This document shows positions 49,402 to 54,677 of a DNA stretch of 64,000 bases, in pieces; positions within the stretch are counted from its first letter, which is position 1, and every line of letters starts with the position of its first letter. The notes beneath the pieces were generated by a model. It saw only the letters and a program-made list of their open reading frames with translations. It did no database searches and was not told the DNA's origin. This DNA is from Pseudomonadota bacterium. Its GTDB lineage: Bacteria > Desulfobacterota > Desulfarculia > Desulfarculales > Desulfarculaceae. The stretch spans positions 207-64,206 of the forward strand of contig JAHJPG010000096.1 in assembly GCA_018819925.1 (NCBI GenBank), given 5' to 3'. A program made the position numbers and the translations under genes.

Positions 49402-50640
49402 CTAGAAGGCCACCGCCAGTTGGGTGGTCACCAGGTCGCGCTCGTCGTCGTTGGCATAATCGCCGCGCAGATACTCCAGGCTCAACCTGGTGTCGGGCAG
49501 CAAGTTCCAGGACACGTTGAAGCCGTATTGACGCTCGGGCTCGAAATCGCCCAAGTCGCCGCTGCCCTCATAGCGCACGGCAAAGGTCCATTTGTCCAAG
49601 GGCATGAAGGCCAACTCAAGATTGTAGGCGTAAGGCTTGGCCTTGCCGCTGGCAAAGGAAAGCTCGCCGGCCTGGAAGTCATCCAAGGCGGTGATGTATT
49701 CGGCGTTGAAAACGGCCCACTTGTATTGGACGTTGAGCATGAAGGACAGGCCGGCCACCAAGTCCTTGAGCTGGTCGTCCACCACCTCGTCGCCCAGGTT
49801 GCCTCCGGCGATGTTGTTGGTGTAGGCAACGCCCGCGTTGATATCCAGGCCATTGGCGATCGCGTCTTGCACCGCGTCGAACTGGGCCCGCACATAGTAG
49901 GTGTTGATGGTGTTGTCCGGGGAGTCGCTGGCCTGGTGCACCGAGGAATTGTAGGTGCCGGCGCCCACGTTGAACCAGTCTTGGGCCCAGCCGATTTCCA
50001 CGGCGGTGGCCTGGGTCTCGAAAACGTTCTTGGTGATGGGGTCGCTGACCATGTAGGTCTCGAACAGGCCTATGGCCGGATACATGCGGCCGCCAAGGAA
50101 GTAGAAGGGCATGTCATCGGTCTGGCCGATCAGGATGAAAGCCTCGTCGATGTTGATGGGATCGGTGTCGCCCTGCTCATAGAGCAGATGCAAGATGCCC
50201 TTGGTGTATTTGTTGATGGTGGCGTCGAAGAATATCTCGGCCGTGGAAAGGGTGAAGTCGCTGTCGGTGACGGACTTGCCGTTGTTGGGCTTGCGGTTGG
50301 AGTAGGAGCCCTCCAGCTCAATGGCGCCGTACACCTTCAACCGCTTGCCGGCCTCGGTCAATAAGCCCTCGGGCTGCTGGGATTTGGTCTTGGCCACCTC
50401 CTGGGACATTTTAAGGGAGCGGCCGGAGGTCGCGTATGCCTCGGCGGCCGCTTTTTGGGCGTCTTGAGCCGACTTTTGCGCCAATTGCAGCTTGTTTTCC
50501 AGTTCGCCCACCCGCATCTTCAGGGCTTGCAGCTCCCGCAGTATGGCCTCCTGGGTTGGGTCGGCGGCAAAGCTCTGCATTGGGCCCAGCAGCAACAGAC
50601 ACAACGCCAGCAAGGCGATTTTGTCCACAGCTCCTTTCAT
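49402..50640 (-). CDS. outer-membrane beta-barrel porin (LbtU-like)
   Basis: Signal peptide, N-terminal coiled coil, G.IELE, LLYEQ..DEAFI..G, C-terminal QLAVAF; last gene of Ni/Co operon; family assignment from recollection of the motif pattern. Confidence 0.7.
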   Translation of the reverse strand: MKGAVDKIALLALCLLLLGPMQSFAADPTQEAILRELQALKMRVGELENKLQLAQKSAQDAQKAAAEAYATSGRSLKMSQEVAKTKSQQPEGLLTEAGKRLKVYGAIELEGSYSNRKPNNGKSVTDSDFTLSTAEIFFDATINKYTKGILHLLYEQGDTDPINIDEAFILIGQTDDMPFYFLGGRMYPAIGLFETYMVSDPITKNVFETQATAVEIGWAQDWFNVGAGTYNSSVHQASDSPDNTINTYYVRAQFDAVQDAIANGLDINAGVAYTNNIAGGNLGDEVVDDQLKDLVAGLSFMLNVQYKWAVFNAEYITALDDFQAGELSFASGKAKPYAYNLELAFMPLDKWTFAVRYEGSGDLGDFEPERQYGFNVSWNLLPDTRLSLEYLRGDYANDDERDLVTTQLAVAF

Positions 50641-50757
50641 TACCAATCTCCTTTCGATGTTTTCATTGCGTCCGCGCCGGTTTTGGGCGCAAACCTCCCC
50701 CTGCCGGGCCATACAGCCCGGATCACGCTGAACGAAAATGGGGGCGTAATTGTTAGA

Positions 50758-51399
50758 TCAGGTCTTCAGGTTTCCATTCTCCAAGCGAAGGATGGTGTGA
50801 CAGGTTCGCTCCAATAGGCCAAGGTCGTGCGAAACCATTGCCCAGGACAGGCTGGAGCGATCCAGCATCTCTTCCATGATCGCGGCCCGCTCTGAATCCA
50901 GACCGGTGCTCGGCTCGTCCAAAAGAAGGGCCTTGGGCTCCATGGCCAGCACCGTGGCCAACGAGACAAGGCGCTTCTCGCCGCCGGAAAGCTGGTAGGT
51001 CAGGCGGCCGCCATAATCGGCCATCCCCAGGCTGGCCAGGGTCTGGGCCACCAGCCGCTGCGCCTCCTGCCGGCCCTTTCCCAGATTCAAGGGACCAAAA
51101 GCCACGTCCTCGGCCACGGTGAGGCAGAACAGTTGATCGTCCGGGTCCTGAAACAGATAGCCCAGCTCCCGGCGCAGGGGGCGAAAATCCTTTTCCCCTT
51201 GGCACAGGCGGCCCCTGGCGTACACCTTGCCCTCCTGGGGATGAAGCAGGCCCAGGCAAAGCTGAAAAAGGGTGGACTTGCCAGCGCCATTGGGGCCCAG
51301 AATGCCCAGCCGCTGCCCCTCGGACAGGGAGAAATCAATGGCGTTGAAAACCGGCGGCCTCCCCGGATAGGCATAGGTCACGCCCTCGAGACGGATCAT
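50758..51399 (-). CDS. cbiO: ECF transporter ATPase CbiO/NikO
   Basis: GPNGAGKST, LFQDPDDQLF..TVAEDVAFGPLNLG, LSGGEKR, LLDEP; ATGA overlap with cbiQ. Confidence 0.92.
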   Translation of the reverse strand: MIRLEGVTYAYPGRPPVFNAIDFSLSEGQRLGILGPNGAGKSTLFQLCLGLLHPQEGKVYARGRLCQGEKDFRPLRRELGYLFQDPDDQLFCLTVAEDVAFGPLNLGKGRQEAQRLVAQTLASLGMADYGGRLTYQLSGGEKRLVSLATVLAMEPKALLLDEPSTGLDSERAAIMEEMLDRSSLSWAMVSHDLGLLERTCHTILRLENGNLKT

Positions 51400-52199
51400 C
51401 TCCACGAAATTCCACTCCATTGCAACAGTGCCAAGGCGATGAGCACACCGCCCGAAATCAGACAAAACCACGTGTCGGCCCGCCGCCAAGTGAAGTGGTC
51501 CAGCAACCAGAAGGTGCCGCTGAACCCCCGGCAGAGCATGGCCTGGTAAACCCGCTCCGAGCGATCCAGGCTGCGTATCAGCAAGATGCCCGTGAGTTGC
51601 GCATAGGTGCGATAGGTGTGCATGTTGCTGGCGGGCTGGAAGCAGCGCACCTGCATCGCTTGGCGCAACCGCAGGTATTCCTGGCGCATCACATGCAGGT
51701 AGCGGTAGAACAACAGGAACATGGTGACCAGCTTGGACGGCACCCGCAGATGGGCCATGGCATGAAAGATGTCCTTGACCGGACTGCTCCCCAACAGGGC
51801 CAGCAGGGCCAAAAATATGGCGTTGGCCTTTAGGGTGATGAGAAAGGCCAAGGAGAGGCCGGATGGATTGTAGGTCAGGCTCAAACCCAGGAAGCCATGG
51901 CCCAAGGACAGTTGCCAAGGCATGAACAGCCATAAAAAGGCGGTGAACAGGTTCACCGCCACTAGGCGGCTTAGAAACAACCTCCAGCCAAGCCGCGCCC
52001 AACCAACCAGGGCCAAGCCCAACAGCACGCCCAGGGCGGGCATCAGGGGCGAGTGGGCCAAGGCCATCTGCAAGCTGTAGATGAACACCACCACCACCTT
52101 GGCTCTGGGATCCAACCTGCCCACCGGACCCGGGGACAAGGCGTTGTCCAGGGAAGGCAGGAGGCCGCGGCTGGGGGCCTTGGAGTTGGCGTTGCTCAT
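51396..52199 (-). CDS. cbiQ: ECF transporter T component CbiQ/NikQ
   Basis: LDPRAK, LRVPSKL, YRY, RSLDRSERVYQAMLCRGF. Confidence 0.92.
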   Translation of the reverse strand: MSNANSKAPSRGLLPSLDNALSPGPVGRLDPRAKVVVVFIYSLQMALAHSPLMPALGVLLGLALVGWARLGWRLFLSRLVAVNLFTAFLWLFMPWQLSLGHGFLGLSLTYNPSGLSLAFLITLKANAIFLALLALLGSSPVKDIFHAMAHLRVPSKLVTMFLLFYRYLHVMRQEYLRLRQAMQVRCFQPASNMHTYRTYAQLTGILLIRSLDRSERVYQAMLCRGFSGTFWLLDHFTWRRADTWFCLISGGVLIALALLQWSGISWR

Positions 52200-52786
52200 C
52201 TAGCGCCCTTGGCCATTTTGCGAGCCTTCAAGTAAGCGGCCAGGCCCAGAAGCCCAGCGATCCAGCCCAGGCCGCCGATGATGTCCTTAAGGCTCGCCTT
52301 CTCCGAACGAGCCGTCATCTCCGCCAACTGGGCGCGCATGGGGGCCAGGCTTTTTTCGACGGCTTGCTGGACGAGCACGCATAGCTCCGGGGCGCTGACT
52401 CCGGCCATGGGGGCCTGTTTGGCCGCCGGCGCGGGCTTTTGCGCCGCGGCCGGTTTCTCGGGGACGCCGAAATCAGCCGGTTTCAGATCGAAAGTAGCCC
52501 GGTGACCGGCGCCGGCATTCAGCACCAGTTGAAATGGCGGCTGCCCATTGGGCACTGGCAGGGAAAAGCTTCCGTCTTGGGCGGTCTTGGTTTCGGCCAG
52601 AACCTTGCCGCCGGCATCCAGCAACTGCACCGGCTGGTTGCTGACCTTGCCGCCGCCCGGCATATAGCCCTCGCCCTTGATCCACCCGCCCTCCACATAG
52701 GCGTACACGCTGGTGCGATGGGCTTGGGCCAGGCCGGCAACCGCCATGATCAGGCAGAAAAAAATCACCGAGGTAGCTTGACGCAT
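52196..52786 (-). CDS. Ni/Co transport accessory protein (CbiL/NikL-like)
   Basis: Signal peptide then AH.., GEG, T..DG.F, GH, C-terminal DIIGGLGWI.GL TM; between cbiM and cbiQ. Confidence 0.75.
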   Translation of the reverse strand: MRQATSVIFFCLIMAVAGLAQAHRTSVYAYVEGGWIKGEGYMPGGGKVSNQPVQLLDAGGKVLAETKTAQDGSFSLPVPNGQPPFQLVLNAGAGHRATFDLKPADFGVPEKPAAAQKPAPAAKQAPMAGVSAPELCVLVQQAVEKSLAPMRAQLAEMTARSEKASLKDIIGGLGWIAGLLGLAAYLKARKMAKGAR

Positions 52787-52793
52787 ATTCGCC

Positions 52794-53408
52794 TCATTTC
52801 AGGGTGGGCCCCTTGCCGAAAAGCTCCGGCCTCACCTTTTTGAGAAACACCACCGCCAGGGAAGTGATAACCCCTTCCAGAACCATGCCGGGCAGGTTCG
52901 CCGCCAGAATGGCCCAGGCCGCCCCCAGGAATTCTTCCCCGCTGCAATAGAGGCTTACGGCGGTGAGAATGGCGGAGATGAGAATGGCGCAAAAGCCAGC
53001 CGCGAAGGCGGCCAGCAGAGGGGCGAGCTTTCCGCTTCGGCGCAGGAACGGGCCGAACAGGTAGTAGCAAAGCACCGCAGGCAAGGCCATGGCGGCGGTG
53101 TTGACCCCCAGCACGGTGAGGCCGCCGAATTGGAACAGCACGGCCTGCAACACCAAGCCCACGAACAGGGCCGGGAAAGCCGACCATCCCAGAATGACCC
53201 CCACCAGGCCGTTGAGGACCAGGTGAATCGACGAAGGCCCCACCGGCAGGTGAATCAGGCTGGCCACGAAAAACACCGCCGACAAGAGGGCCACCCTCGG
53301 CAGGCTTTCGTAATCGATTTTTTTGAGCCCCAGGGCCAGGCCGGCGGCGCTGATAATGGCGCCGCCGGCCAGTACCGGCCCTGAAAGCACGCCTTCGGAA
53401 ATATGCAC
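52794..53408 (-). CDS. cbiM: ECF S component CbiM/NikM
   Basis: MHISEG metal-binding N-terminus, SIHL, LQAVLFQFGGLTVLGVN. Confidence 0.92.
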   Translation of the reverse strand: MHISEGVLSGPVLAGGAIISAAGLALGLKKIDYESLPRVALLSAVFFVASLIHLPVGPSSIHLVLNGLVGVILGWSAFPALFVGLVLQAVLFQFGGLTVLGVNTAAMALPAVLCYYLFGPFLRRSGKLAPLLAAFAAGFCAILISAILTAVSLYCSGEEFLGAAWAILAANLPGMVLEGVITSLAVVFLKKVRPELFGKGPTLK

Positions 53409-53410
53409 CG

Positions 53411-54199
53411 TTAGCGGCCCGTTTCCGAGGACAGGGCGGGATGCGCGTATATCCAGAATACGCCGCCCAACTCAACGTCCTTGTCCTTGCCCTGATGCTT
53501 CAGCTTGAAGTCCTCGGCGGTGTGCAGGGCCGCGAAACCCCACCATCCCGGCCAGGGCATGCTCCAGTTGAAGACGCCGTTGGCATCGGTTTTAACCAGC
53601 TGGGCCACATAAGCGCCCGCCGGGGCCTTGAGTTTGCCGTCGGCGTTATAGAACTCCACCTCCACAGTGGCGTTGGCCAAGGGCTTGCCCTTGTAGAGGA
53701 CCTGACCGCAGAAATTGTTGCCGGCGTAGACCCCAAACGGCCTGGTGAGAGGCACGATCTCCATGGGCAGGCCCACGGGCTCGTCCCAGCCCTCCTCCGC
53801 CTCCAAGGCATCAACCACCGTTTTGGTGTAGTGGATTATGAAGCAATCTTCGGAAGGCTCCCAATACGGCTGGGGAATCATGTAGAAGATGTAATCGCCG
53901 GGGGCCTTGACCCTGTACTGGCCTTGCCAAGTGGTGAAGCCGTTCACCTTTTTTTCTTTGAGGGCGGTCAGCAGGCTGGTTTTCTTGCCCTTTGTAAACA
54001 CCCCCGCCTCGGCCGGCTTGACCAGGTTCATGCCTTGGCCTTCCATGGGGTGCCAAAAGCGAAAATCAAGATTGACCACCCCGGGGCGCCCCAAAAGATT
54101 GCTGTCGGGGATAACCATTCCAAAATGGGCCAGCGCCGGCGTGGCCAGCAGCAAACAAAGCGAAAATACCGCCATCAAGATTCGCCCGATCATTCTCAC
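53411..54199 (-). CDS. periplasmic DUF4198/NikK-like protein
   Basis: Signal peptide then HFGM, HPMEG, PQPYWEP.ED..I.HY.K, EIVPLTRP, KTDANG.F, WWGFAAL. Confidence 0.82.
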   Translation of the reverse strand: MRMIGRILMAVFSLCLLLATPALAHFGMVIPDSNLLGRPGVVNLDFRFWHPMEGQGMNLVKPAEAGVFTKGKKTSLLTALKEKKVNGFTTWQGQYRVKAPGDYIFYMIPQPYWEPSEDCFIIHYTKTVVDALEAEEGWDEPVGLPMEIVPLTRPFGVYAGNNFCGQVLYKGKPLANATVEVEFYNADGKLKAPAGAYVAQLVKTDANGVFNWSMPWPGWWGFAALHTAEDFKLKHQGKDKDVELGGVFWIYAHPALSSETGR

Positions 54200-54291
54200 G
54201 CTCCTTTAACTAATGTTTTTGCTTCGTGTTTGAACGGCACTTCCGTGACCGTTAATGTGTAAAATTCGTCTTTCAATAGTCGTGATCCGTG

Positions 54292-54337
54292 AAAACAAAA
54301 AGCCCGGAAGTCTGCGGCCAGCAGACTTCCGGGCTTT
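54292..54337 (-). terminator. strong intrinsic terminator within the 5' region of the Ni/Co operon
   Basis: Minus strand AGCCCGGAAGTCTGC-TGGCC-GCAGACTTCCGGGCT-TTTTGTTTT. Confidence 0.85.
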
Positions 54338-54425
54338 CTTAACCCAATTTTTCCGAAGCTTACGTCTTAGGTCAAAGAGGCTTCTGCCTCTTTATTTGGC
54401 AAAAACGACGCTCTATGCGTATGGA

Positions 54426-54454
54426 CTGATAACTCATCGAATCGGTCCTGTCAA
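54426..54454 (-). promoter_or_regulatory. sigma70-like promoter
   Basis: Minus strand TTGACA-17bp-TATCAG. Confidence 0.45.
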
Positions 54455-54560
54455 CATTTTTTGGCCAAGGGAGGCGGCTAGGCCGCGCCCACGACCTTGG
54501 ATTGACAAATACAACTGGTGAGATGGCTGCGGTAAGGATTTGCTAAGGCGTCAAAAACAC

Positions 54561-54595
54561 AACAGGCGGTTAGCGTGACCCGCTAACCGCCTGTT
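54561..54595 (-). terminator. terminator downstream of tRNA-Val
   Basis: AACAGGCGGTTAGCG / CGCTAACCGCCTGTT followed by GTGTTTTT on the minus strand. Confidence 0.8.
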
Positions 54596-54602
54596 ATCGT
54601 TT

Positions 54603-54677
54603 TGGTAGGCCAGAGGGGATTTGAACCCCTGACTTCCACCGTGTGAGGATGGCACTCTCCCGCTGAGTTACTGGCCT
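54603..54677 (-). tRNA. tRNA-Val (anticodon CAC), CCA encoded
   Basis: AGGCCAG acceptor stem, D arm ACTC/GAGT, anticodon arm CCATC-CTCACAC-GGTGG, T arm AGGGG-TTCAAAT-CCCCT, ends ACCA; 75 nt. Confidence 0.96.

Follow-up and report, generated by a model that had tools for sequence, protein, structure and literature searches.

The minus strand at positions 54,292 to 54,454 of the DNA analyzed here (the window: 64,000 nucleotides (nt) of contig JAHJPG010000096.1, GenBank assembly GCA_018819925.1, from a member of the Desulfarculaceae, Desulfobacterota) carries the leader of the operon nikK-nikM-nikL-nikQ-nikO-porin. According to our analysis, this leader is very probably a cis-acting attenuator, which belongs to a family characterized by hairpins with GAA loops. 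NikKMLQO is the delta-proteobacterial nickel importer of the energy-coupling factor (ECF) type (PMC545781, PMC2667541). The leader probably answers to nickel status, and we tentatively propose a protein as its reader, namely DUF3842, alone or together with CooT. The family is uncatalogued, being absent from Rfam 15 and from the literature searched. An earlier note on the window had offered two readings of this leader, a novel metal- or cofactor-responsive attenuator and an independent small RNA (sRNA) with a second promoter. The first holds insofar as this is a cis-acting terminator leader of a nickel/cobalt uptake operon, of a class unknown to Rfam, and its link to metal is very probable, given which genes lie downstream, how it complements NikR across genomes and its connection with the CooT pair; the second is contradicted by the spacing of the terminator in relatives, as described below.

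The leader and its switch consist of the following elements:

54293..54397, minus strand: match to R1, the covariance model of the GAA-loop attenuator family (48.3 bits, E = 1.9e-4; the window sequence is among the 33 seed sequences of R1, so this score is partly by construction)

54426..54454, minus strand: promoter of sigma-70 type, predicted from the sequence, with the -35 box TTGACA (54454-54449), a 17-nt spacer and the -10 box TATCAG (54431-54426)

54373..54394, minus strand: hairpin P1, UAAAGAGGC-AGAA-GCCUCUUUG, with the loop AGAA at 54385-54382 (-11.5 kcal/mol)

54329..54347, minus strand: hairpin P2, the putative antiterminator, UUGGGUU-AAGAA-AGCCCGG, with its loop at 54340-54336 (-6.4 kcal/mol)

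54292..54337, minus strand: intrinsic terminator, a 17-bp stem AAAGCCCGGAAGUCUGC / GCAGACUUCCGGGCUUU (54337-54299) with the loop UGGCC, then UUUUUGUUUU

Most of the elements described in the earlier note were recovered. Its promoter is present, with a weak -10 box; the TTGACA/TATCAG pair is unlisted in a consensus promoter scan, and a TTGACA box occupies the equivalent relative position in nearly all related leaders. Judging from these boxes, transcription would begin near 54420, giving a leader of ~130 nt that closes with the terminator. The hairpin written as AAAGAGGC-AGAA-GCCUCUUU is P1, the core of which is GAGGC-AGAA-GCCUC at 54390-54377. The third hairpin of the note, UUGACCUAA/UUGGGUUAA, does fold at 54375-54339 (-6.9 kcal/mol) and appears in the minimum-energy fold, but it is absent from the closest relatives; the conserved element at this site is P2, an alternative pairing of the same UUGGGUU arm. 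The terminator is present as well, and the distance of ~93 nt given to the first gene was about right (92 nt to the GTG at 54199), but its stem has 17 bp rather than 15. A G+C-rich stem-loop (-32.4 kcal/mol) is joined directly to a U-tract extending to 54292, as is characteristic of intrinsic terminators. A simple scan missed it; the closing U's of the stem probably consume part of the T run. In close relatives, the sequence of the terminator stem has changed while its pairing is kept. The 236-nt region overall has a folding z of -5.7 relative to shuffles.

The 3' arm of P2 forms the base of the 5' arm of the terminator, and P2 and the terminator are therefore mutually exclusive. The nascent RNA up to 54316 folds as P1 and P2, and the complete leader reaches -57.3 kcal/mol with the terminator, compared with -43.2 kcal/mol when P2 is forced. 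In the scheme that we propose, P1 and then P2 would fold first, the emerging 3' arm of the terminator would displace the weak P2 (an advantage of 14 kcal/mol), and RNA polymerase would halt at 54292. Termination would thus be the default, and read-through would require P2 to be held. When nickel is scarce, a multimeric RNA-binding factor would grip the similar GAA loops of P1 and P2 (and of a further hairpin, P3, where present); when nickel is ample, it would release them. The best candidate for this factor appears to be the small protein DUF3842 with its translationally coupled partner CooT. Three parts of this scheme are our inference: that the leader responds to nickel, in which direction it does so, and which factor reads it.

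Collecting the leaders of relatives, as the earlier note had advised, yielded a conserved family with covarying stems. A search by DNA similarity alone recovered no more than two relatives, both of the same genus, and the collection was then anchored on the NikK protein, with 25 nikK loci gathered from relatives and 80 named loci from GTDB genomes. The design that recurs in them begins with a TTGACA promoter and a hairpin with a GAA-ending loop (typically GGC-WGAA-GCC), followed by an unconserved linker of ~25-93 nt that is often A-rich. Next comes RCCANGAAGGY, foldable as RCC-ANGAA-GGY (P2), often with a third hairpin carrying an AWGAA loop, and finally YUCGUGGY and the U-tract; the long terminator has at its base the pairing of CCANGAA with UUCNUGG. 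Conserved bases are confined to the purine-rich loops and the switch sequence. Named carriers include Desulfonema magnum and many metagenome-assembled genomes (MAGs) of Desulfobacteraceae, Desulfococcaceae, Desulfosarcinaceae and Adiutrix. Among cultivable organisms, Desulfarculus baarsii DSM 2075, Desulfoferula mesophila and Desulfonema magnum were each met with through the leader or through DUF3842. In most members it is the 5' arm and loop of P2 (CCANGAAGG) that are common to the terminator; the window copy and its closest relatives represent a divergent variant, in which the 3' arm of P2 is the common element.

Covariation was assessed in two alignments, A3 (33 leaders, MAFFT) and A4 (60 distinct sequences, model-aligned). 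P1, P2, P3 and the terminator all covary, above every shuffle and slid control. In P1, all six pairs vary on both sides in A3 and in A4, and none of 500 shuffles matched the observed score. P2 and the terminator base are each paired in nearly all sequences of A3, where they exceed all 500 shuffles and every slid control, and P2 (RCC-ANGAA-GGY) is paired in 99% of cells in A4. As P2 lies outside the structure of the model, its support is not a product of alignment fitting. The base before CCA is the most informative position in this respect: in A4 it forms GC 30, AU 20 and GU 10 with its partner in P2, and GC 27, AU 20 and GU 13 with its partner in the terminator, being unpaired in no sequence in either case. 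One base covarying with two alternative partners is direct evidence of a two-state switch. The variable loop base N of CCANGAAGG likewise varies together with the 3' arm of the terminator (CG 48, UG 5, UA 3, GC 2). In three leaders from MAGs of Desulfobacterales (L047, L056 and L064), an extra CCACGAAA word was observed 20-45 nt upstream of the main CCACGAAGG; this word might base-pair with that 3' arm too, serving either as a decoy or as an alternative 5' arm.

The same collection bears on the second reading of the earlier note. It would make the RNA an independent sRNA, or its terminator an insulator that separates the operon from the tRNA-Val/rluB unit, with nik driven by a downstream promoter; we regard this as highly improbable. 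It can appeal to the 98 nt that separate the U-tract from the ATG at 54193 in the window and that contain TTGAAA (54276-54271). However, no acceptable -10 box follows this TTGAAA, the promoter scan found no promoter there, and tRNA-Val already has a strong terminator of its own (54597-54559). In relatives, the terminator usually ends 3-31 nt from the start codon with only the Shine-Dalgarno sequence in between, which in most of them leaves no room for a promoter, and expression of the operon must be by read-through. In addition, the motif is bound to the function of the downstream gene across families. A leader peptide was also considered and rejected, since the sole open reading frame (ORF; ATG at 54437) begins upstream of the presumed transcription start and is not conserved.

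The genes that the motif precedes provide the first indication of its signal. At E <= 0.001, R1 gave 22 matches in 16 of 151 genomes sampled across the phylum, some of which have two or three copies; in the 4.03-Mb genome of the window, it has a single match, the nik leader, with which two descriptor searches concur. The genes following the matches encode nikK/DUF4198, nikM, CbiM-PDGLE, NikA-like SBP_bac_5 and BtuF-like Peripla_BP_2 proteins, five TonB-dependent receptors, porins of the OprB and MetA types, a CooC-like P-loop ATPase, an FmdE-domain protein and a flavin-reductase-like protein; DUF3842 followed by nikM was also found. This set is a metal-acquisition regulon, and its most specific members point to nickel. 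The copy before the CooC-like ATPase (MKICVCGKGGSGKT...; L124, G081:C13:92629-92723 and downstream) has no typical P1 and lies directly ahead of the gene, which ties the element to nickel insertion into carbon monoxide (CO) dehydrogenase as well as to uptake.

A second indication comes from the distribution of NikR. The genome of the window (96% complete) yielded no NikR_C domain, and the best site in 54150-54620 for the NikR operator GTGTTAC-N13/14-GTAACAC (or reversed) has mismatches at 5 of 14 positions. With no box in the leader and no NikR_C found in the genome, we reject control through a NikR operator here. Across the sample, NikR is present in 72 of 151 genomes compared with 1 of the 16 strict carriers of the motif (G148), and in 9 of 58 DUF3842-positive genomes compared with 63 of 93 DUF3842-negative ones, counts that are taken over related, non-independent genomes. 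At the level of families, 12 of the 13 that contain carriers show no NikR in them. NikR and the leader family are thus nearly mutually exclusive among genomes, and in many bacteria of the sulfate-reducer type the leader seems to take the place of this repressor.

The third indication is the co-occurrence with DUF3842, on which the choice of a reader depends. Carriers were counted at two levels, 16 strict ones (E <= 0.001) and 23 relaxed ones (E <= 0.05, from 40 further DUF3842-positive genomes), 39 in all. DUF3842 is encoded in 16/16 strict and 23/23 relaxed carriers, compared with 58 of the 151 genomes overall, and none of 40 DUF3842-negative genomes has an R1 match at E <= 0.05. In G102 and G169, which belong to one genus, DUF3842 and the motif differ together. 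CooT is found in 38 of the 39 carriers, which makes DUF3842 the better correlate. The window leader shares every feature by which the family is recognized: P1, the exclusion between P2 and the terminator, the R1 score, and a nickel-gene context without NikR and with DUF3842-CooT.

The arrangement of the two genes also connects them with the motif. A CooT homologue follows DUF3842 directly in 13 of 13 loci, usually with a 4-nt overlap. The motif is found no more than a few hundred bases from this pair in 8 genomes: between cooT and transporter genes in G083, G121, G169, G062 and G084, in a divergent arrangement in G138, and on both sides of the pair (motif-pair-motif-transporter) in G090 and G145, where it also precedes the pair itself. 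The last layout is, by analogy, typical of autoregulated antiterminator operons. In the genome of the window, DUF3842 (L147:3744-4163; 139 amino acids, TTG start) and CooT (L147:4156-4350; 64 amino acids, beginning MCE) are situated on contig G000:C25, overlap as ATGTGA, and stand between the divergent plsY and a gene with a metallo-beta-lactamase fold. In P0130 and P0142 (202 and 207 amino acids), DUF3842 and CooT form one polypeptide; these may be fusions or gene-calling artefacts. In such a fused CooT, Cys2 is no longer N-terminal, which is relevant to the nickel binding mode.

CooT proteins studied elsewhere are 7-kDa dimeric proteins that bind one Ni per dimer through Cys2 with a Kd of 9 nM, and their role in CO-dehydrogenase maturation has been called unclear (PMC6006190). 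All CooT homologues examined here begin with MCE, and the predicted structure of CooT agrees with ChCooT 6FAN at a TM of 0.9. We lean toward a protein reader because the loops are repeated and identical, the linkers (~25-93 nt) are unconserved and DUF3842 co-occurs with the motif without exception; identical loops on separate hairpins with variable linkers are a design that suits a multimeric protein. In its most far-reaching form, the DUF3842-CooT reading has DUF3842 bind the GAA-loop hairpins and block termination at low nickel, with CooT as its nickel sensor; we give this form a probability of roughly one in three.

Several observations weigh against this reading. We know of no RNA-binding activity for DUF3842 or CooT. 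The predicted structure of DUF3842 is a Rossmann-like sandwich of a generic kind, with Foldseek E >= 1.8e-3 and with many unrelated families at a VIA Z of about 9, and that of CooT has a good match only to CooT itself, its nearest other matches being weak RimM-type barrels; these fold searches on models appear neither to favor nor to exclude RNA binding. In the genome of the window, the pair lies on another contig than the nik operon. A good copy of the motif and DUF3842 were found in G070, where no CooT was found, and 17 of 56 DUF3842-positive genomes have no R1 match. R1 overlooks divergent copies, for example those of the window's own family. DUF3842-CooT could equally be mere nickel-chaperone cargo of the nickel regulon, and shared descent within a single phylum confounds any such co-occurrence.

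Some of these points agree better with a riboswitch that senses its ligand directly, the GAA loops of two hairpins meeting around Ni2+/Co2+ or a nickel complex and thereby setting the balance between P2 and the terminator; DUF3842-CooT would then be merely co-inherited or co-regulated nickel-handling genes. The leader is self-contained, its conservation is limited to purine-rich loops and the switch sequence, and clustering of the upstream ORFs of 56 loci revealed no regulator gene conserved beside nikK, the only recurring neighbors being trmFO, argS and genes of CBS and SPOR types. The motif ahead of the DUF3842-CooT pair in G090 and G145 is what would be expected of cargo, and G070 is a carrier in which no CooT was found. 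In vitro-selected Ni2+-binding RNAs have purine-rich loops with G-A pairs. However, with P2 as the antiterminator, a ligand that stabilizes the loops would turn the importer ON with nickel, unless only P1 and P3 make the contact, and the terminator of the window carries no GAA loop. The family shows neither a conserved junction nor a conserved pocket, and its linker lengths span about four-fold. The restriction of the motif to DUF3842-positive genomes (39/39 versus 0/40) would be explained only by shared ancestry, and G102 and G169 differ in both together. Overall, we consider a direct riboswitch somewhat unlikely.

Another trans-acting factor, a protein or an sRNA that senses nickel or, for example, the general metal or energy status, appears less probable still. 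The structural evidence is the same as for the other readings, and the downstream set includes FmdE-domain, flavin-reductase-like and BtuF-like proteins, which allows for signals besides nickel. The obvious candidates for such a factor are ANTAR proteins, which recognize 3-bp stems capped by a loop of six nucleotides, the first of them A and the fourth G (Ramesh et al., 2012, PMC3369931). The loops of the leader do not fit this pattern, being AGAA (4 nt) and AAGAA (5 nt) in the window and (N)NGAA across the family, and we reject it as an ANTAR target. An ANTAR reader is rejected as well: the genome of the window encodes two ANTAR proteins, yet none were found in 6 of 10 other carriers that are 97-100% complete. 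CsrA-type GGA sites are likewise rejected, as most loops contain GAA and not GGA. No other candidate is associated with the motif, and DUF3842 already accounts for its distribution.

The remaining features of the locus are as follows:

54408..54420, minus strand: small 5'-terminal hairpin ACGC-AUAGA-GCGU (-3.3 kcal/mol), outside the conserved core

54233..54253, minus strand: P2-like third hairpin AACGGuCAC-GGAA-GUGCCGUU, 3' of the terminator (-8.9 kcal/mol)

53411..54206, minus strand: nikK (DUF4198; Pfam E = 3e-60) with its Shine-Dalgarno sequence AAGGAG at 54206-54201

49402..53408, minus strand: rest of the operon, with nikM/cbiM (53408-52794), nikL (52786-52196), nikQ/cbiQ (52199-51396), nikO/cbiO (end at 50758) and an LbtU-like porin gene (50712-49402)

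The ACGC-AUAGA-GCGU hairpin had also been seen in the earlier note and is present in the window; it has another sequence in close relatives and is missing from distant ones. The P2-like hairpin beyond the terminator is followed, before the ribosome-binding site, by the word CACGAAG at 54228-54222, and an NGAA hairpin in this position also occurs in the same-genus relatives L012, L014 and L017. Together, the hairpin and CACGAAG may constitute a second, translational control layer or a remnant of a duplication. The identities of the operon genes rest on NCBIfam and Pfam matches, and neighboring genes overlap or abut. The Shine-Dalgarno sequence of nikK is spaced 7 nt from the ATG at 54193 and 1 nt from the GTG at 54199, where the mechanical ORF starts; the in-frame ATG is most likely the true start, from which the protein begins MIGRILMAVF..., a signal peptide. 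Upstream of the leader lies tRNA-Val(CAC) (54677-54603, minus strand), and 104 nt separate its terminator from the TTGACA box.

The porin that closes the nik operon (49402-50712, minus strand) belongs to the LbtU family (NCBIfam E = 2e-81), and in the relatives L011 and L015 a porin gene is located ahead of nikK instead; these nickel importers seem regularly to include an outer-membrane channel of their own. In two same-genus relatives (L018 and L022, genomes G001 and G007), a divergent gene upstream of the nikK leader, beginning MAGVQRDGLSSNLEDYLETIF..., looks by eye like a metal repressor of the DtxR/MntR type; if so, two control layers may coexist there.

Cells must limit nickel import tightly, and textbooks assign this control to NikR, a repressor that binds DNA. 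NikR is missing from about half of the sampled Desulfobacterota, and the leader family offers control of nickel uptake at the level of RNA. Known RNAs that sense Ni/Co act on exporters, and we found no report of an RNA element for nickel import: a review from 2024 on metal homeostasis in bacteria (PMC11672702) includes no nickel-uptake riboswitch, our literature searches (nikK, nickel, riboswitch) found neither the GAA-loop motif nor anything pairing DUF4198 with a riboswitch, and on DUF3842 only an unrelated mention was found. The motif marks the nickel regulon without regard to gene identity, and among the genes so marked are those of porins, TonB-dependent receptors and binding proteins whose substrates are unknown. 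A testable role is also suggested for DUF3842 (about 5,200 proteins with no known function) and for CooT homologues that do not lie beside CO dehydrogenase. If the DUF3842/CooT reading is true, the system would join TRAP, PyrR and HutP as their counterpart for nickel and give a function to two uncharacterized or poorly understood families, CooT so far having been regarded only as a CO-dehydrogenase nickel chaperone. With either reader, a protein or the RNA itself, the family would add a new class to the metal-responsive attenuators.

Among known systems, the NiCo (czcD) and cobalamin riboswitches resemble the leader in being leader RNAs of Ni/Co-related transporters. However, the NiCo riboswitch is a four-way junction that switches exporters ON, and the cobalamin element is about 200 nt long with a B12 box. 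In agreement with the earlier note, the leader bears neither: cobalamin (RF00174) and NiCo (RF02683) gave no match at gathering score in the window or 40 related loci, and neither appears among the matches at E <= 10 in 54150-54620. Rfam 15 as a whole gave no match at gathering score in the same loci, and at E <= 10 that region yielded 13 chance-level matches, each located on the terminator hairpin (Thr_leader, rimP and miRNAs, for example), so that no family matches the leader.

The guanidine-II element (mini-ykkC, RF01068) has in common with our family that conservation is found only in the loops of two hairpins joined by a variable linker, and it provides a precedent for a loop-bridging ligand. 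It differs in its ACGR tetraloops with C-G pairing between the loops, which is impossible for NGAA loops, and in governing mostly the translation of guanidine exporters. Membership in this class is rejected, as there is no Rfam match, the loops are NGAA, and in P2 the position following A may be C, U or G and changes in concert with the terminator.

From what is generally known of HutP/hut and BglG-type operons, their order of regulator gene(s), terminator element and structural genes is like that in G083, G121, G169, G062 and G084, and the order element-regulator-element-structural genes resembles G090 and G145. On the other hand, HutP and BglG have no known relation in sequence or fold to DUF3842 or CooT, and the pair of this genome is unlinked to the operon. 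The RNA element of HutP consists of UAG triplets and that of BglG is a ribonucleic antiterminator (RAT) hairpin, unlike the GAA-loop hairpins.

The NikR of delta-proteobacteria (Rodionov et al., 2004, PMC545781) has the same kinds of targets as the leader family, namely nikKMLQO, nikMNQO and outer-membrane nickel uptake, but it binds DNA at GTGTTAC-N13/14-GTAACAC, whereas the leader acts after initiation. The dual-hairpin leaders read by ANTAR proteins (EutV, NasR, AmiR; PMC3369931) are similar in having two tandem small hairpins with similar loops and a variable linker, a second hairpin that overlaps the 5' side of the terminator, and termination as the default. Those leaders serve nitrogen and ethanolamine metabolism, whereas the leader family described here serves nickel uptake.

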